Notes under the pieces: generated by a model
The model's database searches: none
Told to the model about the DNA's origin: nothing
The model's input: the letters and a program-made list of their open reading frames with translations, nothing else
DNA from: an uncultured Planctomycetota bacterium
GTDB lineage: Bacteria; Planctomycetota; Brocadiia; CAIUPP01
NCBI GenBank assembly: GCA_903901045.1
Contig: CAIUPP010000021.1
Span: forward strand, 104,491-168,490
Reading direction: 5' to 3'
Length of the DNA: 64,000 nt
Part shown: piece after piece, positions 1,254 through 61,659 of the stretch
How the letters are laid out: each line of letters begins with the position of its first letter
Position numbering within the stretch: the stretch's first letter is position 1
Position numbers and translations under genes: made by a program

Positions 1254-1282
1254 TTGACAATGCTGTCATCGGATGATACTAT
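1254..1282 (+). promoter_or_regulatory. sigma70-like promoter TTGACA-17nt-TACTAT upstream of AraR-type regulator gene
   Basis: TTGACA at 1254-1259, a 17-nt spacer, then TACTAT at 1277-1282. It lies in an AT-rich island within a GC-rich genome. The predicted TSS (~1289) leaves a ~42-nt leader before the GTG at 1331. Confidence 0.55.
1255..1268 (+). promoter_or_regulatory. perfect palindrome TGACAATGCTGTCA overlapping the -35 element (candidate operator for autoregulation)
   Basis: TGACA-ATGC-TGTCA is a perfect 14-bp inverted repeat. GntR-family operators are typically short palindromes of this kind (GT-Nx-AC). Confidence 0.4.
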
Positions 1283-1288
1283 TTGCGT

Positions 1289-1314
1289 GTGACATGGTGA
1301 CACAGATAGTGACA
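1289..1314 (+). repeat. three direct GTGACA repeats in the predicted 5' leader (1289, 1297, 1309)
   Basis: GTGACA occurs three times with 8-12 nt spacing immediately downstream of the -10. The same hexamer recurs downstream of the paralogous promoter at 18417. Confidence 0.4.
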
Positions 1315-1330
1315 CGGAGACACGGCTACC

Positions 1331-2464
1331 GTGGCGACACTCCTTCAGAAGATACAGATCGACCCCCAATCGTCGGTGCCGAAGCATCTCCAGATACGGA
1401 ATGCGGTGGCCGCCGTCCTGCGCACACAGCAACTGCCGGCGGGCGCAAAGCTGGATTCCGTGCGCGAGGTGGCCGACCGCATCGGGGTCGGCTCCCGAAC
1501 AGTCGCGCGCGCTTACGATCTGCTTCGGCGAGAAGGGGTGATTGTGATTGAGCCGAGTTACGGCGCATTTGTGGCGGCTGGCTCGGAGGTCAAGACAGCC
1601 GTCGACGTATACCTGTGCGCTCATCCCAGCTACCTGGAGAGAAAGCATTGGCTGGCTTTCCAGCGCATACAGGGGGTCATGGCCGCCGCACAACGTCTTG
1701 GCGTCCAACTTCATCCCCTGACGGGGCCCGGGGCGGTCGAGGCGGATGAACTGTGCGGCCGGCGCTGTGCCGTGCTGGTCTTCGACATGGCGTACAGGGC
1801 CGACGGATTTGGACCGATTGTTGACCTCGCCCGGGAGCGTCATATTCCATGCTGCGTGGTCATGGGGGCGTGCGACGGGATGCCCGGCGTGGAAGAGCAT
1901 CGTGAAATGGGCTTCGAACAGGCCACGGAATATCTGCTGGGGCTTGGCCACAGGAATATCGCCTTGATCAACCTCGCTGCGCACAACGGCAACGCGCACG
2001 GCATGACCAGGGCATGGCAGAACCGGCAGGGTTATCTCGCCGCCCTGAAACGCTCCGGATATCCCATCCGCAGCGAGCTGTACGTCGAGGCATTGAACCC
2101 CGAAGACAACGAGATGTATCACACCGAGCGCGCGCTGGACTCGCTCCTCTCCCTTTCTCCGCGGCCGACCGCGATCCTCTGCAACAATGACGTGCGCGCG
2201 CTGGCGGTCATGAAGCTGCTGAACGCGCGCGGGCTCCGCATTCCCGAGGACATGTCGGTGGTCGGGTACGACAACCGGCGCGAATGCGAACGCGCAAATC
2301 CGCGCCTGACCAGCGTGGAAACGCAACTGGTTGAGCAGGGGGAGGCGGCGCTGCAGTTCGTTCTGGAGCAGGTCTGGGGCCGTGAGCCGAAGCCGCCCGC
2401 CGTGTTTCCCCGGCTCGTGCGCCGGGATTCCGTTGCGGCGGTTGGAGGGGCAGGGCTGGTTTGA
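1331..2464 (+). CDS. AraR-subfamily GntR transcriptional regulator (N-terminal GntR winged HTH + C-terminal LacI/PBP1-like sugar-binding domain)
   Basis: The N-terminus ([32 protein letters not shown]) is a GntR HTH. The C-terminal ~300 aa have the LacI/GalR periplasmic-binding-like pattern ([44 protein letters not shown]). GTG start. Confidence 0.8.
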
Positions 2465-2585: not shown

Positions 2586-3887
<1,302 letters not shown>

Positions 3888-3904
3888 GGGACTGGAAGGA
3901 ACCA

Positions 3905-3940
3905 GGGCAGCGCGACCAGGGAGCCGCGCTGCCCTTTTTC
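3905..3940 (+). terminator. rho-independent terminator GGGCAGCGCG-loop-CGCGCTGCCC followed by TTTTTC
   Basis: A perfect 10-bp GC stem, a 10-nt loop and a T-tract, located immediately after the DUF1559 gene stop at 3887. Confidence 0.85.
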
Positions 3941-14116: not shown

Positions 14117-14308
14117 ATGACCGCGCCGCGCACGACCGGCTGCCTGAAGAAGCTCGACCGGATGAACAAGGCGTTGCGACATGAAGAGCCCGACCGCGTG
14201 CCGATCAGTGACTTCTTCTGGGGCGGGTTCGTCGAGCGCTGGCGGAAGGAGTTGGGGCTGCCGTCGGACGCCTCTTCCGATCTCATTACGACCTCGACTG
14301 GATCGTGA
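14117..14308 (+). pseudogene. N-terminal fragment of a URO-D family gene (frameshifted relative to 14305..15279)
   Basis: MTAPRTTGCLKKLDRMNKALRHEEPDRVPISDFFWGGFVERW carries the URO-D/MtaA N-terminal PDRVP motif. Its frame ends at 14308 while the rest of the domain continues in another frame (…YDLDWIVTVHNMD). Confidence 0.45.
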
Positions 14309-15279
14309 CCGTCCACAACATGGACCCGCACATCCGCTCCTTTCAGACGCTCAAGGAGGACGCGGAGGAGGTCATCGTCAAGACCGGCTTTGAGATCTCG
14401 CTGCGCAAACGCTTCGACATGCCAATGCCGGAGCAGATGAGCTGGGAGACGGACTCCATCGAGAAGCTCGAAGCGTTCGCCTTCGACGACCCGGCCGACC
14501 GTCGGCGCTTCTTCAGCGCCGGGGATAATCAGATCGCCGGAGTGGGGGATGGCTTCACGCGCAACAGCCCCCCCTGGGTGGAGAGCGTTCGCGGACTGCA
14601 CAAGGATTTCCCGGTCTATGGAAGCATCATCGAGGCCAGCGAATTCCTCACGCGCGCCGTGGGCCAGATGAACACCCTGATGTGGTTCGGCGAGTATCCC
14701 GAGCGCATGGGGGCGCAGGTCGAGCGGATCAACCGCTTCTACTGCGAGTGCGCCGAGGCCGCCATCCGTGCGGCAGGGGGCCTCCTCGACGGCTTCGTCA
14801 TCTGGGGCGATGTGGCCTATCGCAACAGCCTCTTCATTTCTCCCGGATACTGGCGGCGTTACTTCAAGCCGGGGGTCAAGGCGCTGATTGACCTGTGCCA
14901 CCGGAACGGCCTGCCGGTCATCTACCACGGCTGCGGCAACGTCAAAGCCATCCTGCCGGACTTCATCGAAATCGGCCTGGACGCCTACAACCCCCTGGAG
15001 GCGAAAGCCGGCCTGGACGTGGTGGAGTTGCGAAAGGAGTACGGCCATCAACTCGCCTTCTGCGGCAACAACGACATCACCGTCTGGGAGGGAGGGGACC
15101 CCGTGAAGATACGGCGCGAAACCCTCCGCAAGTTGCGCGCTGGAACGGGGGGTGGCTACATCGTACAATCCGATCATTCCGTGTCGAGCGCCGTCTCGGG
15201 AAAGAGCTACGACCTGGTGGTGAAACTCGTGCGCGAATACGGGAAATACCCGCTGAACCTTGACGCCCTCTCGGACTGA
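14305..15279 (+). CDS. uroporphyrinogen decarboxylase (URO-D/MtaA) family protein, C-terminal major part (apparent frameshift near 14270-14300)
   Basis: URO-D family C-terminal region (GFVIWGDVAYRNSLFISPGYWRRYFKPGVKALIDLCH…IYHGCGNV…GGGYIVQSDHSV). The upstream ORF carries the missing N-terminus. Confidence 0.6.
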   Translation: MTVHNMDPHIRSFQTLKEDAEEVIVKTGFEISLRKRFDMPMPEQMSWETDSIEKLEAFAFDDPADRRRFFSAGDNQIAGVGDGFTRNSPPWVESVRGLHKDFPVYGSIIEASEFLTRAVGQMNTLMWFGEYPERMGAQVERINRFYCECAEAAIRAAGGLLDGFVIWGDVAYRNSLFISPGYWRRYFKPGVKALIDLCHRNGLPVIYHGCGNVKAILPDFIEIGLDAYNPLEAKAGLDVVELRKEYGHQLAFCGNNDITVWEGGDPVKIRRETLRKLRAGTGGGYIVQSDHSVSSAVSGKSYDLVVKLVREYGKYPLNLDALSD

Positions 15280-15290
15280 AAGGAACAACC

Positions 15291-15632
15291 ATGCGGCGAT
15301 TCGGGTGGGTCATCGGCGTGAACGCCGGCAAGGTCGAGGAATACAAGCGCCTCCATGCCGCCGTCTGGCCGGACGTCCTCAAAATGATCAAGCAGTGCCA
15401 CATTCAGAATTACTCCATCTACCTTCGGCAGCTCGACGACGGGCAATATTACCTCTTCAGCTACCTGGAGTACGTGGGCGAGGACTTCACGGCTGATATG
15501 GCGAAAATGGCCGCCGACCCGACGACCCAGAAATGGTGGGACGCCTGCAAGCCCTGCCAGCGACCCCTGACCACCCGAAAGAGCCCGCAGGAATGGTGGT
15601 CGGACCTCGAAGAGGTTTTCCACCTCGATTAG
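15291..15632 (+). CDS. rhaM: L-rhamnose mutarotase
   Basis: 113 aa with close similarity to RhaM/YiiL: VWPDVLKMIKQCHIQNYSIYL, QKWWDACKPCQ, EVFHLD. RBS AAGGAA upstream. Confidence 0.9.
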   Translation: MRRFGWVIGVNAGKVEEYKRLHAAVWPDVLKMIKQCHIQNYSIYLRQLDDGQYYLFSYLEYVGEDFTADMAKMAADPTTQKWWDACKPCQRPLTTRKSPQEWWSDLEEVFHLD

Positions 15633-15646
15633 CCCTCGGAGGAAAC

Positions 15647-16702
15647 ATGAAGCCGCGAGAACGAGTCCTGGCCGTCTTCTCCCATGAGCAGCCCGATCGC
15701 GTGCCGCTCTGGTTCGGCATGTCCGCGGAGTTCGAGGCCAAGGCGATGCGCGAACTGCGCGAGGATGCGGAAGGGCTGCGCCTGTTCCTGGGCGACGACT
15801 TCCGCCGCATATTCGCATCGTACAAACTGCCCTCCACGCCGCTGCCCGAAGGGGCAACCTGCCGCACCATCTTCGGGGTGGACCGGCATGGCCTGGGCTA
15901 TGGCCAGCCCATCTCCCATCCCCTCGCGAACGCCACCCTCTCTCAAGTGCATGACCACCCCTGGCCGGACGCCTCCTGCGTGGACGTCTCCGGGCTGAGG
16001 AAGGCGGCGACCCCCTGGCGCGACCATTACGCCATCCTCGGCGGAGACTGGTCCCCCTTCTGGCATGACGCCATTGACCTGCTGGGAATGGAGAACCTGT
16101 ACCTCAAGATGTACGAAGAGCCGGAACTGGTGGATGCCTTGATGGCCCATCTCGCGGACTTCTACTTCGCCTCCAGCCGCAAAATATTCGAAGAGGCCGG
16201 AGACCTGATCGATATTTTCTTCATCGGCAACGACCTGGGCAGCCAGACCGGGCCGCTCCTGGGGCCGGAACTCTTCGCGCGGTTCATTCTGCCGCACCTG
16301 AAACGCTTCATCGACCTGGGGCATCAGTATCGGCTGAAAGTGCAGATGCACTGCTGCGGCGGCTACGCGCCGCTGATCCCCCTGCTGATCGACGCGCGCC
16401 TCGACGCCCTCCACGCCGTGCAGCCCTGCTGCGCCGGCATGGAACTGCGCGCGCTGAAGGAGCGGTATGGCCGCAAGATCGTTTTCAACGGCGGCATCGA
16501 TTCGCACCACGTGCTGATCAGGGGCACGCCGGAATCCGTCCGCCGAGACACGCGGAAAGTGCTTGAGATTATGATGCCCGGCGGGGGGTACATCGCCGGC
16601 GCCAGCCACGACACCATCCTCGAAGAAACCCCCGTCGAGAACGTCCTGGCGATGCGGGATGAAGTGCTCGAAGCCGGGCGCTATGCGCGCGCCCCGAAGT
16701 AA
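15647..16702 (+). CDS. URO-D/MtaA family protein
   Basis: ATG at 15647 with GGAGGA upstream. N-terminus ERVLAVFSHEQPDRVPLWFGM, and the URO-D family pattern throughout. Confidence 0.75.
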   Translation: MKPRERVLAVFSHEQPDRVPLWFGMSAEFEAKAMRELREDAEGLRLFLGDDFRRIFASYKLPSTPLPEGATCRTIFGVDRHGLGYGQPISHPLANATLSQVHDHPWPDASCVDVSGLRKAATPWRDHYAILGGDWSPFWHDAIDLLGMENLYLKMYEEPELVDALMAHLADFYFASSRKIFEEAGDLIDIFFIGNDLGSQTGPLLGPELFARFILPHLKRFIDLGHQYRLKVQMHCCGGYAPLIPLLIDARLDALHAVQPCCAGMELRALKERYGRKIVFNGGIDSHHVLIRGTPESVRRDTRKVLEIMMPGGGYIAGASHDTILEETPVENVLAMRDEVLEAGRYARAPK

Positions 16703-18370: not shown

Positions 18371-18399
18371 TTGACAAGCCGCCAAACGCGGGATATAAT
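18371..18399 (+). promoter_or_regulatory. canonical sigma70-like promoter TTGACA-17nt-TATAAT
   Basis: Perfect -35 and -10 hexamers with a 17-nt spacer in a markedly AT-rich island. GTGACA lies at 18417-18422 downstream, as at the first regulator promoter. Confidence 0.65.
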
Positions 18400-18432
18400 A
18401 TAAAAGTATAAAACAAGTGACAAATACATAAA

Positions 18433-19644
18433 ATGCGTCGAACGTCTCAGTGCCGGAACAAACAGGCTGAGTGTCCAATGCAGACCAAACCGCCAACCCT
18501 AGCGCGACGCACCCCCCTGAGCGTCAGAATCTACGAAGATCTGGCCGCCTCGATCCATGAAAAGAAGCTGTTGCCTGGGGGCAGGTTGCCCACAATGGCC
18601 GAAGTCGCCGACCAATACGGCGTGTCCTTGAGGACCGCCGCCATTGCATTTGAGCGCCTCAAAGCCGAGGGGTTGGTCGTTTCCCGCACAGCCAGCGGCA
18701 CCTTCGTTGCCCACCCCGTCGAAGCGGCCACTTCGGTTGAAATAATCCTCTGCGTCAATCCGAAGCTCCTCAACAACTTGGAAGGCCCGCGGACCTGGTA
18801 TCCCTTTGCCCGGTTGAGCGGGGTGATTGCCGGAGCGGAACGTCGTCACATGCGTCTGGCTCCGCTTACGGATGGAGCTTTATTCACCTCCTTTATCCAT
18901 GCCGATGTGCGCCAGGGGCTCATCCTTATGGACGACAGTTACGAACCCGACGGGTTCGGAGATATGGCGCGCTACGCCACCGAACACAAGTGGCCGGTGT
19001 GCATGGTGACCGGCCCGTCAAAGAGTTTGCTGTGCGTGGAGGACAATCGCGGCAAGGGGTTTGAACTGGCCACGAACCATCTGCTGAGCCTGGGGCACAG
19101 GCGGATCGCGTACATCAACCTGTCGCCGGAGGGCTGGACGCCGATGGCAGTGGAGCGGTTGATTGTGGGACCGCGGAGCGGATATTTCCGGGCATTGAAG
19201 CGCGCAGGAGTCAGGCCGGAACCGGGGCTGTATATGGAATTGCCCGCGCCGGAGACGGTCGGTCCGGGTCCCACGGCGGAAGCGGTCGAACGGCTTCTGG
19301 CGCTCGATTCGAGGCCCACGGCCATCCTGGCCAGCAATGACAACCGCGCGGTCGTCGTGCTGCAGGTCCTGAAGGCGCACGGCGTCCGCGTGCCCCAGGA
19401 GATGTCCGTCATCGGCTGCGACGACGTCTCCGCGTCGGAAAGATCCGTTCCGCGCCTGACGACCATCAACACCGAATTGATGGCGCAGGGCGAAGCGGCG
19501 GTGAATTATATCGTGAACTGCCTGCAAGGCCAGAAGGCGCCGCTGCCATCGGTGATGCCCAGGCTGGTCGTGCGGGCCTCCTCGGGTGTTCCGCCAAGTG
19601 GCTCTGTTTCCGAAGGGAGAGGTTTTGTAGCGCGCGCACGATGA
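18433..19644 (+). CDS. AraR-subfamily GntR regulator (GntR HTH + LacI/PBP1-like domain), paralog of 1331..2464
   Basis: [35 protein letters not shown] and C-terminal PBP-like region (HRRIAYINL…[35 protein letters not shown]). The start could also be the ATG at 18478. Confidence 0.75.
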
Positions 19645-19696
19645 CGGGAAGTCTGGGTCCTCTTGTTTGGTCACTTATCGAAGGGAGGGTGCCGTG

Positions 19697-21130
19697 ATGA
19701 AGACGATGCGGTCGTTCCTGTCGGCGTTCACGTTGATCGAGCTGCTCGTCGTAATTGCAATCATTGCCATTCTGGCCGGAATGTTGCTGCCTGCGCTGGC
19801 GGCGGCCCGGGAGAAGGCGCGTCGCACCGCTTGCCTGAACAACCTGAGCCAGATGAGCAGAGGGCTGGAAAGCTACTGCAGCGATTACGGCGGCTACTTC
19901 CCCAGTTGGCAAGGGGCAGGCAATAACTTCACCTGGTGCCAGAACGCCGCCGGGCAAGCGGTGTGGGATAATACATGCGTTGGCGGCGCCGATATGCACC
20001 AGTTTGGCAGCACCAAGGCCGGCTGGTACGGGCTTGGCATTACCCCCCAGGATCTGGCGCCCGGACCTGCCGGGTTCAGTGAGGCCCGTTACATGCCCGC
20101 TGAAGACAACGGCGTCCCCACAGGGGCCGGCGCCACGAAGCGTTGGATCGATGCGACCATGGCCTATACCCAAGCCGGTATGTCCTCGCGCAGTCTCGCG
20201 CGCGGGTACATCTGCGAGACCCCGGGCGGCACCACCGACTGGCTCCCCTCGCACGTGCTCGGCGGCTGGAATCTCCCCAAGGGCTCCCTCAACTCCGCGC
20301 CTGAACAGCTTGGCTACCTCCTGACCGGCGGCTACGTGCAGGACGCCGGCGTCTTCTATTGCCCCAGCGCCGCTAGTATGCCGGCGGACTGTTCCTACAC
20401 CTATTACACTTGTTACATGCCCGCCAGTACGCTGGCCGACTGGAAGACGATGGGCGGGCGCGACGGCAAGACCTTGCTGCGCGGATATTATGGAGTCGCC
20501 TTCCCGTACGCGGATACGCCCGGCAAGCGCATGTTCGCGTCCCTCTCCGATCCATGGGGTGGCACAGAGACCATGGTCCAGTCCACCTACCATTACCGCA
20601 ATGCCCCGCTCGGGGTGCGCGGGCCCTGGCACAGGTACCAGGACGGCAATCCCTCGGTGTACTGGCTGCCCGGAGCCAAGCCGCACATCGGGCTCCGGCT
20701 CGGCCAACCGCTCTTCCCCACGCAGAAGATACTCGGCAGCCGCTCGCTTGTGGCCGATACCTTCTCCAAGGGAGGCAAGTATGATGCCGCCGGCAAGGCC
20801 ACGTCTTATGTCCTTGCCGACAATCTTGCCACCAGCAGGAGCTATGCCGGTTTCGGACTTTTGCACCATCGCGACGGTTACAACGTGCTCTACGGCGACT
20901 GGAGCGCCAAGTGGTATGGCGATCCGCAGCAGCAGATCATCTGGCACACGCAAGGCAACGTTAATGGTTCCACCGGCGGAAGCTGGATGTACAACCTCCT
21001 GGCCAACAATTGGTACCTGGCCCCAACTCTTACGGACGAATCGGCTACCGGAGGTAACTTCATCGGCTCGCAACTCGCCGTCTGGCATGACTTCGATGTT
21101 TCTTCCGGCGTGGACGTAAACGTGAACTAA
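19697..21130 (+). CDS. DUF1559 / H-X9-DG-like prepilin-type protein (paralog 2)
   Basis: ATG at 19697 with AAGGGAGGG 7 nt upstream. N-terminus [33 protein letters not shown] and C-terminus [28 protein letters not shown]. Confidence 0.85.
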
Positions 21131-21465
21131 TTTACCGACTCAGCCCTAAGCCAAGGAGGCGTGCGGTCTCCCCCTAGGAGGCCGTACGCCCTTCTGGCTC
21201 GGTTCGGCCGGAGCAAGCCGGGGGAGGCAGGCTGGCCGCAACTGGAGATTCCCAAAGCAGAGTTGAATAGAATTGTGACGATGGAGAGTTCGTGCATGTT
21301 GTTGCAGACTCGGAAGTCCCCTCCCGTGTCGCCGTGCGCTGCGACGCTCCTTTGCGGCAGGCTCCGCGGATGGGGGGGCGAACATCGGGGCGTTGGGGGT
21401 GAAAGAGAACTGAACGCCGGGGCCGGGCCGCGCGGCGGCTCGCCCTTCCTGCGCTGATTCTCTCT

Positions 21466-31593: not shown

Positions 31594-32727
31594 ATGGAGA
31601 TGAATATCAGGCAGGAGTACCAGGTCAAGCGCGAGCGCCTGTTGAACGCCATTGAGTTCAAGCCGACGGACCGCTTGCCGATCTGCGGCTTCAACGGCAC
31701 CATCGCCTCGATTGAGCGAATCACCGGGCGAACCGACTACGTGGCGCACGCCAAGGAGGTCTTCACCCAGGCCATGAAGGCATGGGATACCGACCTCGTT
31801 CTGCAATTCGTCCTGCCCGACCGCCAGGACACCACCTGCGGCCCCTATGGCGAATCGAACGCGCGCGGCGGGCTGCTCAGCGTCGTCTACACGCTGTTGG
31901 GCGAATGGTGCCGGAGCCGCGGGCTAATCAAGTCGCCGGAGGCCTTGCGCGACTTCTGCCTTTCGCTGCCCTCCGCCGGTGAGGCGGCGCGAATCGTCAA
32001 TCCGGAGGCCACGCGGCAGACATGGCTGGCGCTGGATGCCTGGGGGGAGTTCCTCAAGCCGATGGTCTGGGTGCCGGGGCATCGCTGCGGCAGCGTCCCC
32101 TGGATGTGGTACACCACCGTCGGTTACGAGAACTACTTGATGGCCCACTCGCTGTACCCGGAGGCGATGGAACGGCTCTTTGCCCTCTGCGGTGAAGAGG
32201 GGCGGCTGCATAACATCGCCATCGCGCAGGCGATCCGGGAACATGGCCTCATCCCGCTGGTCTACTCCGGCGAGGACATCTGCGCCAACGACGGTCCCAT
32301 GTGCTCGCCGAAGGTGCTCCACGAGATCTATTTCCCCCATCTCAAGCGCGCCGTCGAGCCGCTGGCCGAGGCGGGCGTCCACTGGCTCTGGCACAGCGAC
32401 GGCAACATCCTGCCCATCCTGAGCGACCTGCTCGACTGCGGCATCGACGGATTCCAGGGGTTCGAGGAGGACAAGGGGATGGACCTCCTTCAACTTGCCC
32501 GGACTCCCTGCAAGAACGGCCGCCTGCCGTTCCTCTGCGGCAGCGTCAACGTCACCACCACCATGTACACCACGCCGGAGGAAATCGCGAAAGATGTCCA
32601 GCGGATGCTCTCCCTCTCAAAGGCGCGCGGGGGCGGAGTCGTTCTCTGCCCCAGCAGTTCCTTGATGGAGAACATGCCGGTTGAGAATGTCATGACTTTC
32701 TACGAACGCGCTCGCAGTCAGAAATAG
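31594..32727 (+). CDS. URO-D/MtaA family protein
   Basis: N-terminus KPTDRLPICGFNG and C-terminus GGGVVLCPSSSLMENMPVENV are typical of the URO-D family. Starts 3 nt after the Gfo/Idh/MocA gene. Confidence 0.7.
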   Translation: MEMNIRQEYQVKRERLLNAIEFKPTDRLPICGFNGTIASIERITGRTDYVAHAKEVFTQAMKAWDTDLVLQFVLPDRQDTTCGPYGESNARGGLLSVVYTLLGEWCRSRGLIKSPEALRDFCLSLPSAGEAARIVNPEATRQTWLALDAWGEFLKPMVWVPGHRCGSVPWMWYTTVGYENYLMAHSLYPEAMERLFALCGEEGRLHNIAIAQAIREHGLIPLVYSGEDICANDGPMCSPKVLHEIYFPHLKRAVEPLAEAGVHWLWHSDGNILPILSDLLDCGIDGFQGFEEDKGMDLLQLARTPCKNGRLPFLCGSVNVTTTMYTTPEEIAKDVQRMLSLSKARGGGVVLCPSSSLMENMPVENVMTFYERARSQK

Positions 32728-34100: not shown

Positions 34101-35153
34101 ATGACGGACAAGGAAAACCTGCTTCGATGCATCCGGTTCGAGACCCCGGATCATATTCCCGTCTCCTTCCAGATCAACCCCGCCTGCTGGCAACACTATG
34201 ACCAGGAGGCGCTCAAGGACTTGATGGAGAGCCACAGGCTTCTCTTCCCGCACTACCAGAGGCTGGCGGGCAAGGTGACGCCGGCGTTCCTGCCCAACGC
34301 CCGCGCCGATCGGCCCTACACCGATCCGTGGGGCTGCGTCTGGATGACCGCCGACGACGGCATCACCGGCGCCGTCCATGGCCATCCGTTGCCGGACTGG
34401 GAGCGGTTCGCCCAATACCGCGCTCCAGACCCAGAGACGAGCGACGGCACGTATCCGATCGACTGGAAGGAAATCGCCGCGGGCGTCCGCGAGGCCCGGG
34501 CGGCGGGCGAGGTGGTCTGGGGAGGCCTGCCGCACGGTCACACCTTCCTTCGCCTGCAGGACATCCGCGGCTACGTGAACCTCCTGATGGACATGGCCGA
34601 CGACCACCCGAACCTCCCGAAGCTGATCGGCATGGTGGAGGAGTTCAATTACCGCTTCGTGACGAAATGGATGCAACTGGAGCCCGACGTTTTCGGGTAC
34701 GCCGAGGATCTGGGCATGCAGGTGGGGCCGATGCTTTCCCCCGCGCAGTTCCGGAAATACATCAAGCCGGTGTATCAGCGGCTGATGAAACCGGCCCGCG
34801 ACCGGGGCTGCATCGTGCAAATGCACTCCGACGGCGATATCCGCTCCCTGGCTGACGACATGATCGATGCCGGCGTGGAGGTGGTGAACCTGCAGGACCT
34901 GGTCAACGGCATCGACTGGATCGCTCAGCGGTTCGCCGGGAAAGTCTGCGTTCAACTGGATATCGACCGGCAGAGTGTGACGCGCTTCGGCGCGCCCGCG
35001 GAAATTGACGCCCTCATCCGCGAGGAGGTGGAAAAGCTCAGCACCTCCCGTGGAGGACTCATGCTGATCTTCGGCATGTATCCCGGCCTGCCGCTCGAGA
35101 ACGCCAGGGCGCTCATGGACGCCATGGAGCGGTACAGCGTTCTGCACGCCTGA
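34101..35153 (+). CDS. URO-D/MtaA family protein
   Basis: N-terminus LLRCIRFETPDHIPVSF and the family pattern through the C-terminus (GGLMLIFGMYPGLPLENA). Confidence 0.75.
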   Translation: MTDKENLLRCIRFETPDHIPVSFQINPACWQHYDQEALKDLMESHRLLFPHYQRLAGKVTPAFLPNARADRPYTDPWGCVWMTADDGITGAVHGHPLPDWERFAQYRAPDPETSDGTYPIDWKEIAAGVREARAAGEVVWGGLPHGHTFLRLQDIRGYVNLLMDMADDHPNLPKLIGMVEEFNYRFVTKWMQLEPDVFGYAEDLGMQVGPMLSPAQFRKYIKPVYQRLMKPARDRGCIVQMHSDGDIRSLADDMIDAGVEVVNLQDLVNGIDWIAQRFAGKVCVQLDIDRQSVTRFGAPAEIDALIREEVEKLSTSRGGLMLIFGMYPGLPLENARALMDAMERYSVLHA

Positions 35154-35341: not shown

Positions 35342-35370
35342 TTGACTGATTGATTGCGACCGGTTATGAT
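35342..35370 (+). promoter_or_regulatory. sigma70-like promoter TTGACT-17nt-TATGAT, with a second TATGATCA copy 24 nt downstream
   Basis: TTGACT at 35342-35347, a 17-nt spacer, then TATGAT at 35365-35370. A direct repeat of TATGATCA lies at 35389. RBS AAGGAG precedes the ATG at 35407. Confidence 0.5.
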
Positions 35371-35406
35371 CACATCAATCATTCGGCCTATGATCAAGGA
35401 GCGCAC

Positions 35407-36549
35407 ATGCGAGAGATCGGCGTGGGCATAATCGGGTTCGGCCTGATGGGGCGTGTGCACGCGTATGGCTATCGCACGCTGCCATTTTTCTTCGATCCCG
35501 CCCCGGCGCGCATCCGGCTCGTGGCGGTGTGCGACGCCCGGCGCGAGGTGGCGGAGAAGGCGAAGGATCAGTTCGGCTTCGAGTTTGCGGCCAGCGACCC
35601 TCTGGAGGTGATTTCCCGCGACGACATCCAGGTCGTGGACATCTGCACCCCGAACCAGTTTCATAAGGAGGGGTTGCTTGCTGCGATCAAGGCGGGCAAG
35701 CATATCAACTGCGACAAGCCGATCACCGGCAGTTGGGCCGATGCGCAGGAAATCGGGCGGGCGCTCAAGGGGTATTCCGGCATCGGGCACATGGAACTGA
35801 ACAGCCGCTTCATCCTCCCCGCCCTGCGCGCCGCGCAGTTGATTCAAGAGGGGTTCCTGGGGCAGGTGACGCAGTTCCGCGCCGGGTATTACCATGCCGG
35901 GAGCATCGACCCGAAGAAGCCGATCGGCTGGAAGCAGGAGGCGGCGGCCGGCGGCGGGGTGATCAATGACCTGGCCAGCCACGTGGTCGATGTGATGGAG
36001 TGTCTGGTCGGACCGATTGCGGCGGTGCGCGTGGAGAGCCAGATTCTGTATCCTCAGCGGCCCGACGCCGGCGGGAAGCTCGTTCGCGTCGAGGCGGAGG
36101 ATGCCGTGACCATCCAGCTCAGGCTTCGCGACGGCGGCATGGGGCTGATCGAAGCGTCTAAAATCGCCACCGGGACCAACGACGAGATTCGCGTGGAAAT
36201 CCACGGGCGGCGCGGCGCCGTGCGTTTCAACTCCATGGAGCCCAACTACCTGGAGATCTACTCCGCCCTCGACGCCGAGGAGCCGCTGGGGGGCCTGCGG
36301 GGCTGGCGGCGCGTGGATACGGTGAACCGCTTTGCCAAGCCCGGCGGCTGGCCCGGTCCGAAATTCGCCATCGGCTTCCTCAGGTCGCACGTCCAGTGCC
36401 TCTACAACTTCGTCAGCGCCGTAGCCGAGAACCGCAAAGTCCGCCCCTCCCTGGAGGATGGCATCCGGCTGCAGTACCTGCTTGAAGAAGTGCGCGCAAG
36501 CGCCGCCGACGGCGCGTGGCACAAGATCGCCGAGGCGACTCCATGCTGA
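35407..36549 (+). CDS. Gfo/Idh/MocA family oxidoreductase
   Basis: ATG at 35407 after AAGGAG. Motifs MREIGVGIIGFGLMGRVHA and AGKHINCDKPI. The longer upstream ORF would overlap the promoter. Confidence 0.85.
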   Translation: MREIGVGIIGFGLMGRVHAYGYRTLPFFFDPAPARIRLVAVCDARREVAEKAKDQFGFEFAASDPLEVISRDDIQVVDICTPNQFHKEGLLAAIKAGKHINCDKPITGSWADAQEIGRALKGYSGIGHMELNSRFILPALRAAQLIQEGFLGQVTQFRAGYYHAGSIDPKKPIGWKQEAAAGGGVINDLASHVVDVMECLVGPIAAVRVESQILYPQRPDAGGKLVRVEAEDAVTIQLRLRDGGMGLIEASKIATGTNDEIRVEIHGRRGAVRFNSMEPNYLEIYSALDAEEPLGGLRGWRRVDTVNRFAKPGGWPGPKFAIGFLRSHVQCLYNFVSAVAENRKVRPSLEDGIRLQYLLEEVRASAADGAWHKIAEATPC

Positions 36550-37313
36550 ACGAGTCCCCGCAGGAGCGGGTGGGACGCATCATGGACCGTCTGCGCGCCG
36601 GCAGCGTTTCCGTGCGGGACCTTGCCCGCGACATGGGCGTCTCCGAGATCACGATCCGCCGCGATCTGGCGTCGCTGAAGCGCGACGGGAAACTGCTCCG
36701 AGTCTACGGGGGGGCGATTCCGAAGGAGCGCGTCGCCTACGAGTTCTCCTTCAAGGAAAAGGAATCGCTCCACCGCGCGGAAAAGGAATCCATCGGGCGC
36801 GCGGCGGCGGGGCTGGTCGAGCCAGGCGCGGCCGTCTTCCTGGACACCGGCACCACCGCGGTCGAAGTGGCGCGCGCATTGCGCGGCAGAACGCCGGGAG
36901 TGATCGTCACCGTCAACTTGTGCGTGGCCTCCGAATACGTCGGGCAGGAGCGCGTGCGCGTGATCATGCCCGGAGGCGAACTGGGCCGGCGCTCCCCGGA
37001 CCTGCTGGGGGAGTTGACGCTGCAGACGCTCTCGCAGATGACGGTGGACGTGGCGTTCCTGGGATGCGACAGCGTCGACCCGGCCAGGGGGTTCTATGCG
37101 GCGGACTTGCGCAGCGCGGCCGTCAGCCGGCTGATGCTGGAGCAGAGCCGCCGCGCCTTCCTCATCGCCGATAGCAGCAAATTCGGCCGGCGCGCCATGG
37201 TGCGCATCGCCCCTGTGGGCCGGCTGGCTGGGATCATCACGGACGCCGGTCTCGCGCGGCCGCACCGCGCGGCTCTCCGGCGCGCCGGCGTACGGGTTGT
37301 GACTCAGGACTGA
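36543..37313 (+). CDS. DeoR family transcriptional regulator
   Basis: DeoR HTH (SVRDLARDMGVSEITIRRDLASL) and DeoR C-terminal sugar-phosphate-binding domain (VFLDTGTTAVEVA…FLGCDSVD). Overlaps the upstream gene by 7 nt. Confidence 0.8.
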   Translation: MLNESPQERVGRIMDRLRAGSVSVRDLARDMGVSEITIRRDLASLKRDGKLLRVYGGAIPKERVAYEFSFKEKESLHRAEKESIGRAAAGLVEPGAAVFLDTGTTAVEVARALRGRTPGVIVTVNLCVASEYVGQERVRVIMPGGELGRRSPDLLGELTLQTLSQMTVDVAFLGCDSVDPARGFYAADLRSAAVSRLMLEQSRRAFLIADSSKFGRRAMVRIAPVGRLAGIITDAGLARPHRAALRRAGVRVVTQD

Positions 37314-43582: not shown

Positions 43583-44443
43583 CTAGCGTTCCCGCGCCGC
43601 GAACTGGCCCGCCGTCATGCCCGTCACCTTCTTGAAAACCCGCATGAAGTGGAACACGTCTCGGAAACCCGTGCGCGCGCTCGCCATTTTGATCGGCAGG
43701 CCGTCCGCCAACAACTCTTTCGCGCGCGTCACGCGCTGTGTCGCGACATACCGTAGCGGCCCCAGGCCCGTGTAGGACTTGAACAGCCGGCGGAATTGCG
43801 CGGCGCTCAGATGACACCGGGAAGCTGTCGCAGGGAGCGAGAACGGCTCCGCCGAGTGCTCGGCGAGGAACCGCACGGCCTCTTCGATCCGCTCATCCGT
43901 TCGCGGGCGCCGGCGCATGGAAGAATGGTAGAGCATCTGGATCATGTTCATCACCACGATCTTCCGCCGAAGCACTGCGTCGCGCCCTTCGGAATCCAGA
44001 ATCAGCTTCAGCTCCGCATGCGCCTGCCTCACGACCTGCAACCGGTCCTCGACGACGGGGCGCTTTGCGCTGATGTAGCCGCACTGCTCCAAACGGGCGG
44101 CCTCCTCGCCATTCCAGACGACCCACAGCGTCTCCCAACTCGTGTCAGGCCCGTAATGCGCCGGCTCCTCCGGAAAGAGAAATATTACGCCGTGCTCAGC
44201 CACGGCAAGGCGGCCCGTCGTCCGCGAGGCGAACCAGCCCTTCCCCTTCTTCACGTAGACTGCCGCATACTGGCCAAGAAGGCGCATGGGGGGAGGGGAG
44301 GCTCGGTTGGTCGCCTCTCCTATTCGGTCCACCCAAAGGCCGATCGCTCGCTCGATGTTTGAAGGGGTGCGGAACCGCTGCTCCCGGTGAACGGGTTCTC
44401 TCGGTATGCGCGAACCGTCCATAGACCTGGCGCTTCCGTGCAT
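43583..44443 (-). CDS. AraC family transcriptional regulator (cupin-like N-terminus + AraC HTH)
   Basis: C-terminal AraC HTH (LSAAQFRRLFKSYTGLGPLRYV…ARTGFRDVFHFMRVFKKVTG). Start chosen at the ATG at 44443, because the longer ORF runs into the divergent AT-rich promoter region. Confidence 0.7.
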   Translation of the reverse strand: MHGSARSMDGSRIPREPVHREQRFRTPSNIERAIGLWVDRIGEATNRASPPPMRLLGQYAAVYVKKGKGWFASRTTGRLAVAEHGVIFLFPEEPAHYGPDTSWETLWVVWNGEEAARLEQCGYISAKRPVVEDRLQVVRQAHAELKLILDSEGRDAVLRRKIVVMNMIQMLYHSSMRRRPRTDERIEEAVRFLAEHSAEPFSLPATASRCHLSAAQFRRLFKSYTGLGPLRYVATQRVTRAKELLADGLPIKMASARTGFRDVFHFMRVFKKVTGMTAGQFAARER

Positions 44444-44534
44444 TGGCGCGGCCCTGCGGGAAGTTATAATAGTCAAATATGTACTGCGGATATGAGCCAG
44501 TGGTTGAGAATACAGAAGAAGAGGGTCAAAGTCA
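44444..44534. promoter_or_regulatory. AT-rich divergent promoter region (TATAAT at 44465-44470 on + strand; TTGACT/TATTAT on - strand)
   Basis: GAAGTTATAATAGTCAAATATGTAC is an AT-rich island between the divergently transcribed AraC and URO-D genes. A weak -35 (TTGGCG) lies 16 nt upstream of the TATAAT. Confidence 0.4.
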
Positions 44535-45689
44535 ATGAATGCAATAAAAGGACATAAGGCCATGACCGGACGGCAGCGGCAATTGGACACGTTGCTTTTC
44601 AGGCAACCGGACCGCATTCCTCTGGTCCCCGGCGGCGGGCGTCAGTCGACGCGCGAGGCGTGGTATCGCCAGGGGTTGCCCCGCGACGTCAAGGACATTC
44701 CGCAGTACGCCTATCGCCAGGCCGGCGGCAAGCTCGATTGGCCCACGGGCGGGCCGGGGTTCATCACAGCCGAGCGGATGATCCCCATGTTCGAAGAGAA
44801 GGTGATCGAGCGCAAAGAGCGCTCGCAGATCGTACAGGACTGGAAAGGGAACATCTGCGAGATCGGCAACGAGTTCACGACGGAGTACCTGCGCAACGCG
44901 CTGGACTTCGTCACGCGGCGGTGGGTCAAGTGCCCCGTCGAGAACGCCGCCAATTGGGAGGAGATGAAACGGCGCTATGATCCGAATACTCCGGAACGCC
45001 TTCCGGCGGACGCCGCGACCCTGGGACCGAGCCTGGCGAACCGCGAGCACTACATCGCCATTAACTTCTCGGGTCCCTTCTGGCAACTCCGGGAGTGGTG
45101 CGGATTCGAGCCGCTCTGCGTCATGCTCTACGACAACCGGCCCCTGGTGATGAAGATGCTGACGTTCTGGGAGGAGTACGTCTCGCAATTGCTGGAGCGG
45201 ACCTTCCGCTGCTTCATCCCGGACGAAGTGCATCTCTCCGAGGACATGGCGTACAAGAGCTTTTCGATGATTTCGCCCGCGATGACGCGCGAACTGCTCC
45301 TCCCCATGTACAAGCGGTGGGGGGCGATGGTCCGCAAGGCCGGCGTGCCGATTTACGCGATGGATTCCGACGGCTACGTCGGCGAACTGATCCCGATGTG
45401 GTTGGAAGCAGGCATCAACGTCTGCGATCCGATCGAGGTGGCGGCAGGAAACGACATCGTCGCCTTTCGCAAGGAGTTCGGAAAAGACATGGCCTACCGC
45501 GGCGGCGTGGACAAGCGCGCAATCGCGAAGGGGGGAGATGCAATCCTGGAGGAAATGCGGCGCATCGAGCCGGTAATCAGCGGCGGCGGCTGTATTCCCA
45601 GTTGCGACCACGGCGTGCCGTCGGATGTCTCCTGGCCCAATTATGTGCGGTTCACCGGGTTGCTGGCAAAGGCGACCGGTTGGCTCTAG
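44535..45689 (+). CDS. URO-D/MtaA family protein
   Basis: N-terminus LLFRQPDRIPLVPGGG and C-terminus GGGCIPSCDHGVPSDVSWPN, 384 aa. Confidence 0.75.
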   Translation: MNAIKGHKAMTGRQRQLDTLLFRQPDRIPLVPGGGRQSTREAWYRQGLPRDVKDIPQYAYRQAGGKLDWPTGGPGFITAERMIPMFEEKVIERKERSQIVQDWKGNICEIGNEFTTEYLRNALDFVTRRWVKCPVENAANWEEMKRRYDPNTPERLPADAATLGPSLANREHYIAINFSGPFWQLREWCGFEPLCVMLYDNRPLVMKMLTFWEEYVSQLLERTFRCFIPDEVHLSEDMAYKSFSMISPAMTRELLLPMYKRWGAMVRKAGVPIYAMDSDGYVGELIPMWLEAGINVCDPIEVAAGNDIVAFRKEFGKDMAYRGGVDKRAIAKGGDAILEEMRRIEPVISGGGCIPSCDHGVPSDVSWPNYVRFTGLLAKATGWL

Positions 45690-45898: not shown

Positions 45899-45927
45899 TT
45901 GACAACAAGTAACCAATCGGTTATAAG
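45899..45927 (+). promoter_or_regulatory. sigma70-like promoter TTGACA-17nt-TATAAG upstream of TetR gene
   Basis: TTGACA at 45899-45904, a 17-nt spacer, then TATAAG at 45922-45927. AAGGAGAGG follows at 45937-45945. Confidence 0.55.
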
Positions 45928-50408: not shown

Positions 50409-51599
50409 ATGAGTGTGCATGTTTCACCGGACCAGATGCAGCGCGCGGAGCAGTTCGTCCGAAAGGTCAAAGGGCCGGACGGCCTGGCGGTCGTCGACTT
50501 TGAGAAATTCTGGGCAGCGCATGAGAACGCGCTCCGGAGTCCCTGGGACGCCGCTTGCCGGCAAGTGCCGTTGGGGCTGGCCGGCATGAGCATCGAGTGC
50601 GTCTGGGCGGAACTGGGGGAGCCGGAGGACTGGCATCGCCTCTCGCACGACGATGCTTTCAGCGCCGCGCTTGCCCGCCGCTACAACGATCAGGCCGAGC
50701 GGATCGTCGGCCGCCGGCTCCTTCGGGAGGAGAATGCCCCGCGCCGCCTTCCCGCGCCGCCCATCAAAGGGCTTCACGATATTTTCGAATCCGAGAACCG
50801 GTGGGAGGGGCAATCGTACTGGCTCAAGCAATCCGCCGCGAACGCCGGGGAGCTTTCCGCCCTGCTGGACCGCGTGGAGCGGCGGCTGGAGAATCTGCGC
50901 GACTTCCTTCTGCCCGGCGGCTGGGAAACGGTCAAGCGCGCGCACCTCGACGCCGGTGGGAAGATCATGCCCTATCGCAGCCAGCGCGGGCCGGTCACGT
51001 TTGCCATGTCGATCTTCGGCGTGGAGAACCTGATCTACCTGATCATGGACAATGCCGCGCTTGCCGCGCGTTTCCGCGACCTGCTCCTCAAGTCAATCCT
51101 CGAACGCGCCCGCATCATTGACGAGGAAGCCGGCTTCACTGCGGAGACCGCTCCGCGCCGTTGGAGTTGGGCGGATGACAACTGCGCCTTGCTCAACAAG
51201 GAGATGTACGACTTCTTCGCGCAGCCGATCCTGAAGGGCGTGTTCGACCGGCACGCTTCCGGGCCGAACGACGTGCGCTATCAGCATTCCGACTCCGACA
51301 TGGCGCAGCACCTGCCCACCCTGGGGCGGCTGGGTTTGAGCGGCGTCAACTTCGGTCCCAACCTCACCGTGGCCGAGATTCGCAGCCACCTCCCACGCGC
51401 GATTATTTACGGGCAGATCGCTCCGTTCACTTTCTGCCGCAATGAGGAAGTGAACATCGTCGCGGAGTTTCTTCGCGACCGGGAGATGGCGCGCGAGAAA
51501 CGCGGCCTGGTCTTCACCACCGCGGGATCGATCAACGACGGCTCCCGCTTGAGCAGCCTGCGTCTGCTCATGGCCGCGGCGCAGGAGTTCACGTACTGA
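50409..51599 (+). CDS. URO-D/MtaA family protein (divergent)
   Basis: The central and C-terminal pattern (VTFAMSIFGVENLIYLIMDNAALAARFRDLL…, IIYGQIAPFTF) fits the URO-D family. The N-terminal ~120 aa are atypical. Confidence 0.55.
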   Translation: MSVHVSPDQMQRAEQFVRKVKGPDGLAVVDFEKFWAAHENALRSPWDAACRQVPLGLAGMSIECVWAELGEPEDWHRLSHDDAFSAALARRYNDQAERIVGRRLLREENAPRRLPAPPIKGLHDIFESENRWEGQSYWLKQSAANAGELSALLDRVERRLENLRDFLLPGGWETVKRAHLDAGGKIMPYRSQRGPVTFAMSIFGVENLIYLIMDNAALAARFRDLLLKSILERARIIDEEAGFTAETAPRRWSWADDNCALLNKEMYDFFAQPILKGVFDRHASGPNDVRYQHSDSDMAQHLPTLGRLGLSGVNFGPNLTVAEIRSHLPRAIIYGQIAPFTFCRNEEVNIVAEFLRDREMAREKRGLVFTTAGSINDGSRLSSLRLLMAAAQEFTY

Positions 51600-60493: not shown

Positions 60494-61597
60494 TCATGCA
60501 CCCGGAACCGTTGCGGCCGTGGCCGCGTGCGCGCAGGTATTACCCGGCATCAACTCTGGGGCGACCAGGACGCGCCCCGGGTTCCGCCCCGTGGCGGCAA
60601 TCCCAAGCAGCTCCTTGACCGCCCGGTGTGCGATGGCTTGCCACGCGTTGTCCACGCGGCTGATCACGCGGTTTTCCATCTGAGCATGCTCGGCGCTGCA
60701 CAAAGCAAGCACGGAGCAATCCTGCGGCACGCGGATGCCCGCGCGTTCGAGCGCCGATACGGCCGGGCGGCCCATGGCCCCCGGGCCGGCAAACACGGCC
60801 GTCGGCCACCCCTCGGGAGCGCCCGAGAAGAATTCCGGAATCAAGTCCGCAATGGCCTTTTCACAGGCTTCATGCGCCAAACCGTGTAAGGGGTGTGAGC
60901 GCACGGTCATATCTTCCATGCCCGTCAGCGGCCACGGCTCCAGCGCCGCGCGCCCCTCGTTCCAGAAGATGCGCGGGAGAAGCAGGACGCGCCGATGCCC
61001 CAGCCCGTAGACATAACGCATCCCGGTCTCATAGGCCGCGCGCAGATCGCGGTCCACGAAGTTCGGCATGCCGACGTCGTAATAGATGGCCACCGAAGGG
61101 GCCCGTGCCGTGAGGATGCTGCTGACCCAGCGCAGCAGCGGGGAGGAAGCGCGCTCGACAAAATGGAATAGAAAGCCGACGCGCTTGTTGAGGAACTTCT
61201 GCGGATCGTCCCGTTCTGTCGCCGTGATGAACAGGAGTCCATGTTCGCTGCAAGCGCGCTTGGTTCCAGCCATAATATCCATCAGCGTGCCCTGCTGGCG
61301 CTCCGCAGTGGCTTCCAACTGTGTAGCAAGGTTGGATTCCTCCGTCACGAGCACAATGGCGTCGAGCGGGCAGTCGTTGGCGGGGAACGTGCCCACCCCG
61401 TGAAGGATGCGGACGCGGCCGTTGGACGCAAGGTGCCGCACAGCGCGGTGGACAGTCATGGGGGCGACTTGATGGGTTCCGGCGAGATCGCGGATCGAGG
61501 GAATAGCCTGTTCGGGGGGGTATTCGCCCGAAAGGATTCGGGCTTCAATATCCTCGGCAAGCCGTTTGAATAGCTGCTGGTCTTTCCGGCCCTTCAT
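60494..61597 (-). CDS. AraR-subfamily GntR regulator (GntR HTH + PBP-like domain), third copy
   Basis: HTH IPSIRDLAGTHQVAPMTVHRAVRHLASNGRV and C-terminal PBP-like domain. Start set at MKGRK, because the longer ORF start lies upstream of the promoter's -35 hexamer. Confidence 0.7.
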   Translation of the reverse strand: MKGRKDQQLFKRLAEDIEARILSGEYPPEQAIPSIRDLAGTHQVAPMTVHRAVRHLASNGRVRILHGVGTFPANDCPLDAIVLVTEESNLATQLEATAERQQGTLMDIMAGTKRACSEHGLLFITATERDDPQKFLNKRVGFLFHFVERASSPLLRWVSSILTARAPSVAIYYDVGMPNFVDRDLRAAYETGMRYVYGLGHRRVLLLPRIFWNEGRAALEPWPLTGMEDMTVRSHPLHGLAHEACEKAIADLIPEFFSGAPEGWPTAVFAGPGAMGRPAVSALERAGIRVPQDCSVLALCSAEHAQMENRVISRVDNAWQAIAHRAVKELLGIAATGRNPGRVLVAPELMPGNTCAHAATAATVPGA

Positions 61598-61629
61598 GCC
61601 AACCTCGCATAAGGTACACTTGCAACGTA

Positions 61630-61659
61630 CAGTGTATAACAGTATTCTATGTTTGTCAA
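61630..61659 (-). promoter_or_regulatory. sigma70-like promoter on minus strand: TTGACA-17nt-TACACT, with TACACT/AGTGTA inverted repeat over the -10/TSS
   Basis: On the minus strand it reads cccTTGACAaacatagaatactgttaTACACTgtacgttgcaaGTGTAcc (coordinates ±2 nt). Confidence 0.45.

Follow-up and report, generated by a model that had tools for sequence, protein, structure and literature searches.

AraR of Bacillus subtilis binds 16-bp palindromes with the consensus ATTTGTACGTACAAAT, and one such box lies at the promoter of araR itself (PMC1950556). NanR of E. coli, a GntR-family repressor, uses an operator of three GGTATA repeats (TGGTATAW, with a period of about 8 bp) located downstream of the RNA polymerase site; three NanR dimers bind the three repeats, and at least two repeats with the correct spacing are needed (PMC8012715, PMC4494728). 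NagQ and FarR are, like NanR, GntR-family members acting on direct repeats (PMC4494728). The present analysis concerns a 64-kb stretch of DNA (64,000 nucleotides) from an uncultured Planctomycetota bacterium, contig CAIUPP010000021.1, positions 104,491 to 168,490, referred to below as the window, in which three genes for AraR-type regulators, here named R1, R2 and R3, are each preceded by a predicted promoter and by short repeats around the predicted transcription start. It is proposed with moderate confidence that each regulator has its own autoregulatory operator, a private repeat array at a consensus promoter, which at R1 resembles that of NanR. There is no shared operator, and the repeat cores differ between the regulators.

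The gene map was based on third-position GC and Pfam, with starts fixed by public gene calls. R1 (1331..2464, forward strand, 377 aa, GTG start, on which the gene callers agree) combines a GntR winged helix-turn-helix (wHTH) with a LacI-type sugar-binding domain, which is the AraR-type architecture. R2 (18478..19644, forward strand, 388 aa) starts at ATG 18478 rather than at 18433 (P0006, 100% identity, 388 aa), and R3 (60494..61597, reverse strand, 367 aa) starts at ATG 61597 (P0057). All three have PF00392, the GntR wHTH, at the N-terminus and PF13377 (Peripla_BP_3) and PF00532 in the C-domain, for which the PDB matches are PurR, LacI, CcpA and the AraR effector domain 3tb6. None of the three reaches the equivalog level of NCBIfam, and their recognition helices differ.

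Upstream of the three genes, the pattern TTGACA-N17-TAnnnT was found exactly three times in the 64 kb, against 0.02 expected from whole-window shuffles, and all three matches precede R1, R2 and R3. Since the window has 64% GC while the promoter sites lie in AT-rich DNA, a null of local composition was also used, in which dinucleotide shuffles of each 150-nt upstream region gave match chances of 0.002, 0.0007 and 0.0006 per region. At R1, the -35 hexamer TTGACA (1254..1259, forward) is followed by an A at 1260 and, after a 17-nt spacer, by an extended -10, TG-a-TACTAT (1274..1282, forward; hexamer 1277-1282), with the TG one base 5' of the -10. The R2 promoter, TTGACA-17-TATAAT (18371..18399, forward), agrees with the consensus at 12/12 positions, and the R3 promoter (61631..61659, reverse) reads TTGACA (61659-61654), 17 nt and TACACT (61636-61631). 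The three sites lie outside coding regions, 33-78 nt 5' of the start codons, and combine the -35, the spacer of 17 +/- 1 nt, the TAnnnT and the above-chance placement expected of sigma-70-type promoters. They show no structural difference from the known form (TTGACA-17 bp-TATAAT, optional TG), and they are very probably real promoters, their activity and transcription start sites being predicted here; transcripts would begin at about 1288-1291, 18405-18407 and 61625-61623, some 7 nt past the -10. The result points to the use of the standard promoter consensus by an uncultured GC-rich organism.

A fourth promoter, of a TetR gene, had been grouped with these three by the initial annotation, which took TTGACAA, a 17-nt spacer, TAnnnT and an AT-rich setting as common to all four. 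The heptamer is indeed present at 1254, 18371 and 45899 on the forward strand and at 61659 on the reverse strand (pattern search of the window), and all four sites match TTGACA at 6/6 positions and lie 20-80 nt 5' of start codons, but TTGACAA alone is not enriched (5 in the window against 3.7 expected). The seventh-base A, which is no recognised element of sigma-70 promoters, occurs in about 9/19 compared promoters and is inconsistent across homologous loci; as a promoter element it is not established, being found in only about half of the 19. Spacer and TAnnnT hold for R1, R2 and R3, but the TetR site (45899..45927, forward) reads TTGACA-17-TATAAG, the last base of its -10 not being T, and fits the promoter pattern loosely. 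The AT-rich setting was borne out, as ranking the 80-nt islands of the window by AT content puts the upstream regions of R2, AraC/hyp384, R3, R1 and TetR in the first five places, so that for annotation such islands mark transcription-unit starts. Nearly all homologous loci with upstream DNA present have TTGnnn, a 16-17-nt spacer and TAnnnT, and 14 further loci of other organisms have such a pair before the regulator gene. However, other transcription-unit starts of the window (GFO-DeoR, AraC, hyp384 and hyp374) carry promoter-like pairs too, and the common promoter architecture is therefore the ordinary housekeeping consensus, with no regulator-specific signature.

What distinguishes R1 lies downstream of its -10. 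The candidate operator (1289..1323, forward) contains GTGACA at 1289, GTGACAC at 1297, GTGACAC at 1309 and GAGACAC at 1317, and such a chain of four hexamers has p=0.002 in shuffles. The spacings of 8, 12 and 8 nt divide the chain into two 20-bp units, each made of two hexamers 8 bp apart, and the two 20-nt units are 80% identical. Relative to the predicted transcript, it covers positions from about +1 to +35. A fifth, degenerate copy, GCGACAC, read directly from codons 2-4 of R1 (1334..1340, forward), is of uncertain membership in the array. The pattern GNGACANNGNGACA has two matches in the window, both at 1289-1322, against 0.17 expected. Three GTGACA copies after the R1 -10 had been recorded initially and were found as described, at 1289, 1297 and 1309; two more degenerate copies had been missed, and so had the organisation in 20-bp units. 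Based on these observations, the R1 GTGACA repeats are very probably a functional cis-element, a candidate in the position of an autoregulatory operator. GTGACA/TGTCAC is about two-fold depleted in the window, with 9 occurrences against 20 expected from dinucleotide shuffles, of which 3/9 fall at 1289-1314; this depletion makes the cluster stand out more. A second element proposed at this promoter, a perfect palindrome TGACAATGCTGTCA overlapping the -35, was rejected. It is an inverted repeat of 5-nt arms, TGACA-atgc-TGTCA (1255..1268, no strand assigned), with an asymmetric ATGC spacer; when the 76 nt around it are shuffled, one as good turns up in 53% of cases (p=0.53), and it is not conserved in homologues, being absent in L007 and L005 of the set described next.

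Homologous loci (numbered L) were collected from the contigs of the nearest relatives and from a metagenome scan with the helix-turn-helix of the R1 group. The lineage is thinly sampled, and the nearest relatives are 45-48% identical for R1, 67%, 54% and 52% for R2, and 37-40% for R3. A scan with the full-length regulator returned at least 80 loci that were mostly LacI loci of Acidobacteria and Firmicutes, keyed on the LacI domain, and among the matches listed only L014 has a GntR N-domain. In R1 homologues of 39-48% identity, two to four tandem TGACAC or TGATAC cores occur in the same place with an 8-nt period. In L007 (48% identity), TTGACT-17-AATAAT is followed at once by three copies of ATGACACA at lag 8, whereas L005, L008 and L009 (45%) have four copies of TGAT(A/G)C at an 8-nt period that start on the -10. 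The members of the latter group differ in the -35 (TTGCGC, TTGTGT, TTGCAT), in the spacer and further upstream, yet share the number and register of these units. L103 (39%), an independent locus of an AraR-type and a DUF1559 gene that was found only through the helix-turn-helix, has TTGACA-17-TACGCT followed by TGATAA-ta-TGATAC. Across the 107 fetched loci, TGAYACNNTGAYAC was found only at these promoters. Furthermore, the core changes with the protein: TGACAC goes with the recognition helix GVG-S/T-RT.ARA (R1, L007) and TGATAC with GVG-L-RTAARA (the L005 group, L103), a correlation of four lineages in all, two per core. A side observation concerns the DNA further upstream, where five to six tandem 9-nt units (GGACCCATG / CCCATGGnT) lie about 35-80 nt before the -35 in L005 (5835-5880) and L008 (1-50), with a looser version in L007 (205-245); these units are absent upstream of R1.

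Repeats of this size could also be functionless, left by slippage as low-complexity DNA in AT-rich, weakly constrained intergenic regions, or they could form a phase-variable tract. The units are short (6-8 nt), the copies are few, and several arrays are non-significant individually, which suits such an origin. Yet L005, L008 and L009 agree in the number (four) and the register of their TGATNC copies while their flanks diverge, and unrelated loci have repeats in the same position with respect to the -10. In the 50 nt from the -10, exact lag-8 runs of 6 nt or more are present in 7/9 R1/R2-like loci, against a background of 1.2% of 21,972 windows (0.3-3.4% in shuffles), an excess that is still large although the loci are partly related and their independence is overstated. 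No copy-number variation of the repeats was seen among strain-level and related contigs; this constancy speaks against neutral slippage, and phase variation was rejected on the same ground. A functionless origin is accordingly regarded as very unlikely. Another reading, that the TGATAC array represents overlapping -10-like hexamers, is true of the L005 type only and not of R1 or L007, and was rejected as a general explanation.

The sites at R2 and R3 are built differently from that of R1. The candidate operator of R2 (18399..18413, forward) has two copies of TATAAAA at an 8-nt period (18399-18405 and 18407-18413), the first on the -10. From the -10 on, R2 can be aligned with L097 and with L092, its paralogue on the same contig; the sequences are TATAAT-AT-AAAAGTAT-AAAA in R2, TAAAGT-AG-AAAAGTAG-AAAT in L092 and TATAGT-AT-AAAAGGGT-AAAAGG in L097. 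All three have 8-nt repeats with the first copy overlapping the -10, and the AAAAG(T/G).. element of R2 is kept in L092 and L097. L107 has two copies of GCGATAAA, and L094 a 12-nt repeat at a 20-nt period. At R3, the candidate operator (61615..61636, reverse) is the inverted repeat TACACT-N10-AGTGTA, in which the -10 hexamer itself forms the left arm (TACACT 61636-61631, AGTGTA 61620-61615; 6-nt arms, 10-nt gap), a layout found also in L100 and L014. The inverted repeat alone has p=0.18 and may be a candidate for the generic GntR signature (N)x-GT-N(0-15)-AC-(N)x, a palindrome of GT...AC symmetry. In R3 (TACACT/AGTGTA) and in L100 (TAGACT/AGTCTA, twice), the -10 hexamer recurs as its reverse complement 9-10 nt downstream, and a longer inverted repeat in L100 (20 nt, 75% complementary) extends across the promoter. 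In L014, the counterpart of TATAAT is ATTATA, about 27 nt past the -10, and these two enclose a further pair, ATGCC/GGCAT. The lag-8 repeat was found in none of the R3-like loci. By this comparison of loci, the R3 inverted repeat is supported as a candidate operator of a different design from that of R1. The initial annotation had called it a related repeat; it does overlap the promoter, but no test relates it to the R1 repeats.

The placement of these sites bears on whether they act in DNA or in RNA. TRAP- or CsrA-type regulators recognise RNA through unstructured repeated motifs, and most copies at R1 and L007 lie 3' of the predicted start, inside a 5' leader of 40-70 nt, so that the repeats might serve in the mRNA leader as sites for an RNA-binding protein or as an element of translation or stability. 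However, the first repeat overlaps the -10 in R2, L092, L005, L008 and L009 and would be missing from the transcript, the -10 itself serves as one arm in R3, L100 and L014, and the core co-varies with a DNA-binding helix. Folding of the predicted leaders was no better than that of shuffles (z -0.3, +1.0, +0.35, -0.5 and -1.1), and no Rfam family matched within the window. A DNA operator is favoured because repeats and arms on the -10 are untranscribed, the leaders show no folding signal and Rfam gave no match; a role in the leader is considered quite unlikely.

A further explanation is that one operator vocabulary, made of TGACA/GTGACA half-sites and related inverted repeats, is common to the four promoters and represents a single regulon motif. 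This had been suggested from the presence of TTGACAA at all four sites and of GTGACA at both R1 and R2 (1289, 1297, 1309 and 18417), and TGACA is in fact part of the -35 hexamer itself. The R2 copy (18417..18422), although present after the -10 as had been noted, has no counterpart in relatives: unrelated sequence occupies its site in the 67%-identical paralogue L092 (P0007, same contig) and in the 54% homologue L097. It was rejected as a shared element and is probably coincidental. GTGACA is missing at R3 and TetR, the -35 palindrome is no better than expected by chance and absent from homologues, the recognition helices of R1-R3 differ, and TetR belongs to an unrelated family. Since GTGACA is rarer in the window than expected and forms a cluster at R1 only, it is not a genome-wide regulon motif, and genome searches with TGACA/GTGACA would mostly recover -35 boxes. 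The initial annotation had itself named a lack of TGACA/GTGACA enrichment upstream of paralogous regulators as grounds for giving up the motif, and on those grounds the shared-motif claim fails; a common vocabulary is now extremely improbable. Its broader suggestion of autoregulatory operators survives in part, in that the R1 array and the R3 repeat have counterparts in homologues, but with no common operator across the four promoters.

The three regulator genes have one neighbourhood layout, in which the regulator is followed by a gene for a DUF1559 protein with a prepilin-type methylation motif and then by a same-strand run of enzyme genes. The partner of R1 is a DUF1559/prepilin-type N-terminal methylation-domain gene at 2586..3887 on the forward strand (Pfam, gene calls), and the partners in the other two loci lie at 19667-21130 and 59156-60448. 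The same-strand genes that follow encode Laminin_G_3, GH95, GH42-like, beta-helix, URO-D-like and GFO/IDH/MocA proteins; further regulators in the window belong to the DeoR, AraC and TetR families. The pairing of regulator and DUF1559 gene was seen also in L005, L008, L009, L094, L097, L098, L099, L103 and L107, and spans regulators just 20-48% identical; the exceptions to adjacency are L094, in which DUF1559 is the second gene downstream, and L091, in which it is absent. The DUF1559 N-terminus is of prepilin type, including (I/V)AIIAIL, in most loci with downstream DNA. A stem-loop followed by U5, similar to a terminator or attenuator, comes after the DUF1559 gene of the R1 locus (3904..3939, forward, stem 3904-3935; dG -26.6, z -2.0), and one directly 3' of the DUF1559 gene of the R2 locus at 21149-21199 has dG -41.9 and z -3.9. 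The former would close an R1-DUF1559 unit, and together they suggest that regulator and DUF1559 gene form one transcription unit, separated from the enzyme genes by a terminator, attenuator or stabiliser. No promoter-like site was found 5' of the enzyme genes in searches of the window. Among the carbohydrate clusters, five URO-D-family genes are scattered (14305-15279, 15533-16702, 31594-32727, 34101-35153 and 50409-51599), which together with several GFO/IDH/MocA oxidoreductases is an unusual enrichment for glycan-degradation loci. An unlisted open reading frame (MRRFGWVIGVNAGKVEEYKRLHAAVWPDVL...) occupies 15291-15532, within an apparent intergenic gap of 253 nt, and is presumably similar to L-rhamnose mutarotase.

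Promoter-like pairs at other transcription-unit starts were located as well. TTGACT-17-TATGAT at 35342 (forward) stands at the start of a GFO/IDH-DeoR unit, TTGACT-17-TATTCT at 44535 (reverse) at that of an AraC-family unit, and TTGGCG-16-TATAAT at 44443 (forward) at that of the hyp384 unit; by direct reading, TTGCGA-17-TACCAT lies upstream of 61766, before the gene divergent from R3. The second AT-richest island (44440-44540) is the divergent region between the AraC-family gene (reverse) and hyp384 (forward), with its promoter-like sites face to face. Within 35342-35381, the arms of a perfect inverted repeat of 8 nt, TGATTGAT (35347-35354) and ATCAATCA (35374-35381), stand on either side of the -10, and TATGATCA occurs again 27 nt downstream; these repeats are a candidate operator, which may serve the DeoR regulator at 36516-37313. 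The probable start of the GFO gene is ATG 35408, preceded by AAGGAG. At the TetR site, an inverted repeat TAACC-aatc-GGTTA (45910-45923) lies in the spacer and overlaps the -10, the usual place of a TetR-family operator; alone it is not significant (p=0.48).

Built on the observed sequences and their statistics, on positional conservation and on the divergence between regulators, a mechanism is proposed in which the sign of regulation and the bound protein are predicted. Each of the three AraR-type genes heads a same-strand cluster of regulator, DUF1559 and then glycoside-hydrolase, lectin-like and oxidoreductase genes, and each regulator gene would be transcribed from a housekeeping TTGACA-17 nt-TAnnnT promoter. 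The private short-repeat array from the -10 to about +35 would serve as operator, with the product of the adjacent regulator gene as its ligand. When no sugar is bound, the regulator would sit on this array and prevent open-complex formation or promoter escape, and the outcome would be negative autoregulation together with control of co-transcribed genes. At R1, fucose-containing sugars are candidate effectors, as a GH95-family enzyme is encoded in the cluster. At R1, four to five GNGACA(C) hexamers would accept one dimer per 20-bp unit, the units being two helical turns apart; at R2-like sites the operator would consist of A-rich 8-bp repeats beginning inside the -10, and at R3-like sites of an inverted repeat with the -10 hexamer as left arm. 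Confidence in this mechanism comes entirely from comparative sequence evidence on a small, partly related set of loci. If it is true, each regulator-DUF1559-enzyme cluster would be an insulated, self-repressed module, and the operators could be located from the place and spacing of their repeats instead of through a common motif.

Positional conservation and statistics identify a site and not its ligand, and no second site elsewhere ties the motif to the regulator, so that the repeats could be under selection but bound by another protein such as a transcription factor, a nucleoid protein or a sigma-associated factor. This is judged unlikely. The core shifts from locus to locus in step with the recognition helix of the adjacent regulator, which is unexpected for a common factor, and autoregulation is the norm for GntR/AraR repressors (PMC1950556). 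Within stretches of 13-64 kb, each core clusters only at the promoter of its own regulator, which fits autoregulation of one promoter per locus. The co-variation of core and helix gives indirect support to a predicted cooperative binding of dimers of the cognate regulator. A bolder and doubtful extension of the private-operator proposal concerns this uncultured lineage, which by its DUF1559 and N_methyl content probably belongs to the Planctomycetota-Verrucomicrobiota group: all of its DUF1559-paired AraR-type regulators would follow one fixed design, a consensus promoter and at once two to five 6-bp cores at an 8-bp period, in which one or two recognition-helix residues determine the core (Ser/Thr for TGACAC, Leu for TGATAC). 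If true, this would be a readable recognition code, by which the wiring of dozens of polysaccharide-degradation clusters in genomes of this kind could be predicted from sequence, and a LacI-type dimer scaffold would be able to offer its GntR domains to direct repeats, like NanR.

Several points count against private direct-repeat operators. The described AraR of B. subtilis binds palindromes, as stated at the outset, and a LacI-type dimer is expected to present its helix-turn-helix motifs symmetrically, for which direct repeats 8 bp apart are not an obvious geometry. The arrays at R2, R3, L097 and L098 are individually non-significant, the case being a cross-locus comparison of few, partly related sequences, and the helix-core correlation draws on the small number of lineages given above. 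Tandem Repeats Finder calls the L005 array and does not call that of R1, because the spacing of the latter is irregular. A search for regulon targets found no second copy of a core elsewhere in the window or in the homologous loci of 6-21 kb. Finally, with the hairpins that follow DUF1559, the enzyme genes may not be under the regulator promoter, and both transcription of the pair only and read-through into the enzyme genes are possible.

In comparison with B. subtilis AraR, R1-R3 are alike in the architecture of GntR helix-turn-helix and LacI-type domain, in the C-domain match to 3tb6, in their carbohydrate-utilisation neighbours and in a putative operator at the own promoter. They differ in that the candidate sites of R1 and R2 are direct repeats and not a 16-bp palindrome, that their identity to characterised members is low, and that the pseudopilin-like DUF1559 partner is absent from the Bacillus system. 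The ara box was not found at the promoters: TTGTACGTACAA with up to 3 mismatches has 2 matches in the window against 5.7 expected, none of them at a promoter, and R3 has only the TGTACGT half of the box. These differences suggest that AraR-type regulators outside Firmicutes use private direct-repeat arrays on the -10/+1 region instead of the Bacillus ara box.

The closer likeness is to NanR. The NanR-type pattern of at least 2-3 hexamer direct repeats at a period of about 8 bp is seen at R1 (1289/1297 and 1309/1317), in three copies at L007 and in four at L005, and the arrays lie from the -10 to about +35 of the predicted promoters. The R1, L007 and L005 arrays thus match the NanR operator in unit length, period, copy number and position, and the other-strand cores here, GTGTCA and GTATCA, resemble GGTATA. 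However, NanR has a helical C-domain of FadR type and an N-terminal extension that mediates cooperativity, whereas R1-R3 have a LacI-type C-domain, which places them outside the FadR subfamily; NanR has one even array, whereas the R1 repeats form two 20-bp units, at which binding is predicted. NagQ (TGGTATT), FarR (TGTATTAWTT) and the MocR-type GabR/PdxR likewise indicate that the GntR wHTH is not limited to palindromes, and their GT-containing cores are similar, but they belong to other subfamilies (HutC, MocR) with other biology, and the MocR repeats have long spacers (PMC4494728). In conclusion, the R1-type arrays resemble the NanR operator and may work like NanR in mechanism without NanR membership; an operator of this direct-repeat type has not been described for AraR-type regulators, and the R1 repeats and their analogues are probably private operators of the regulators encoded next to them.

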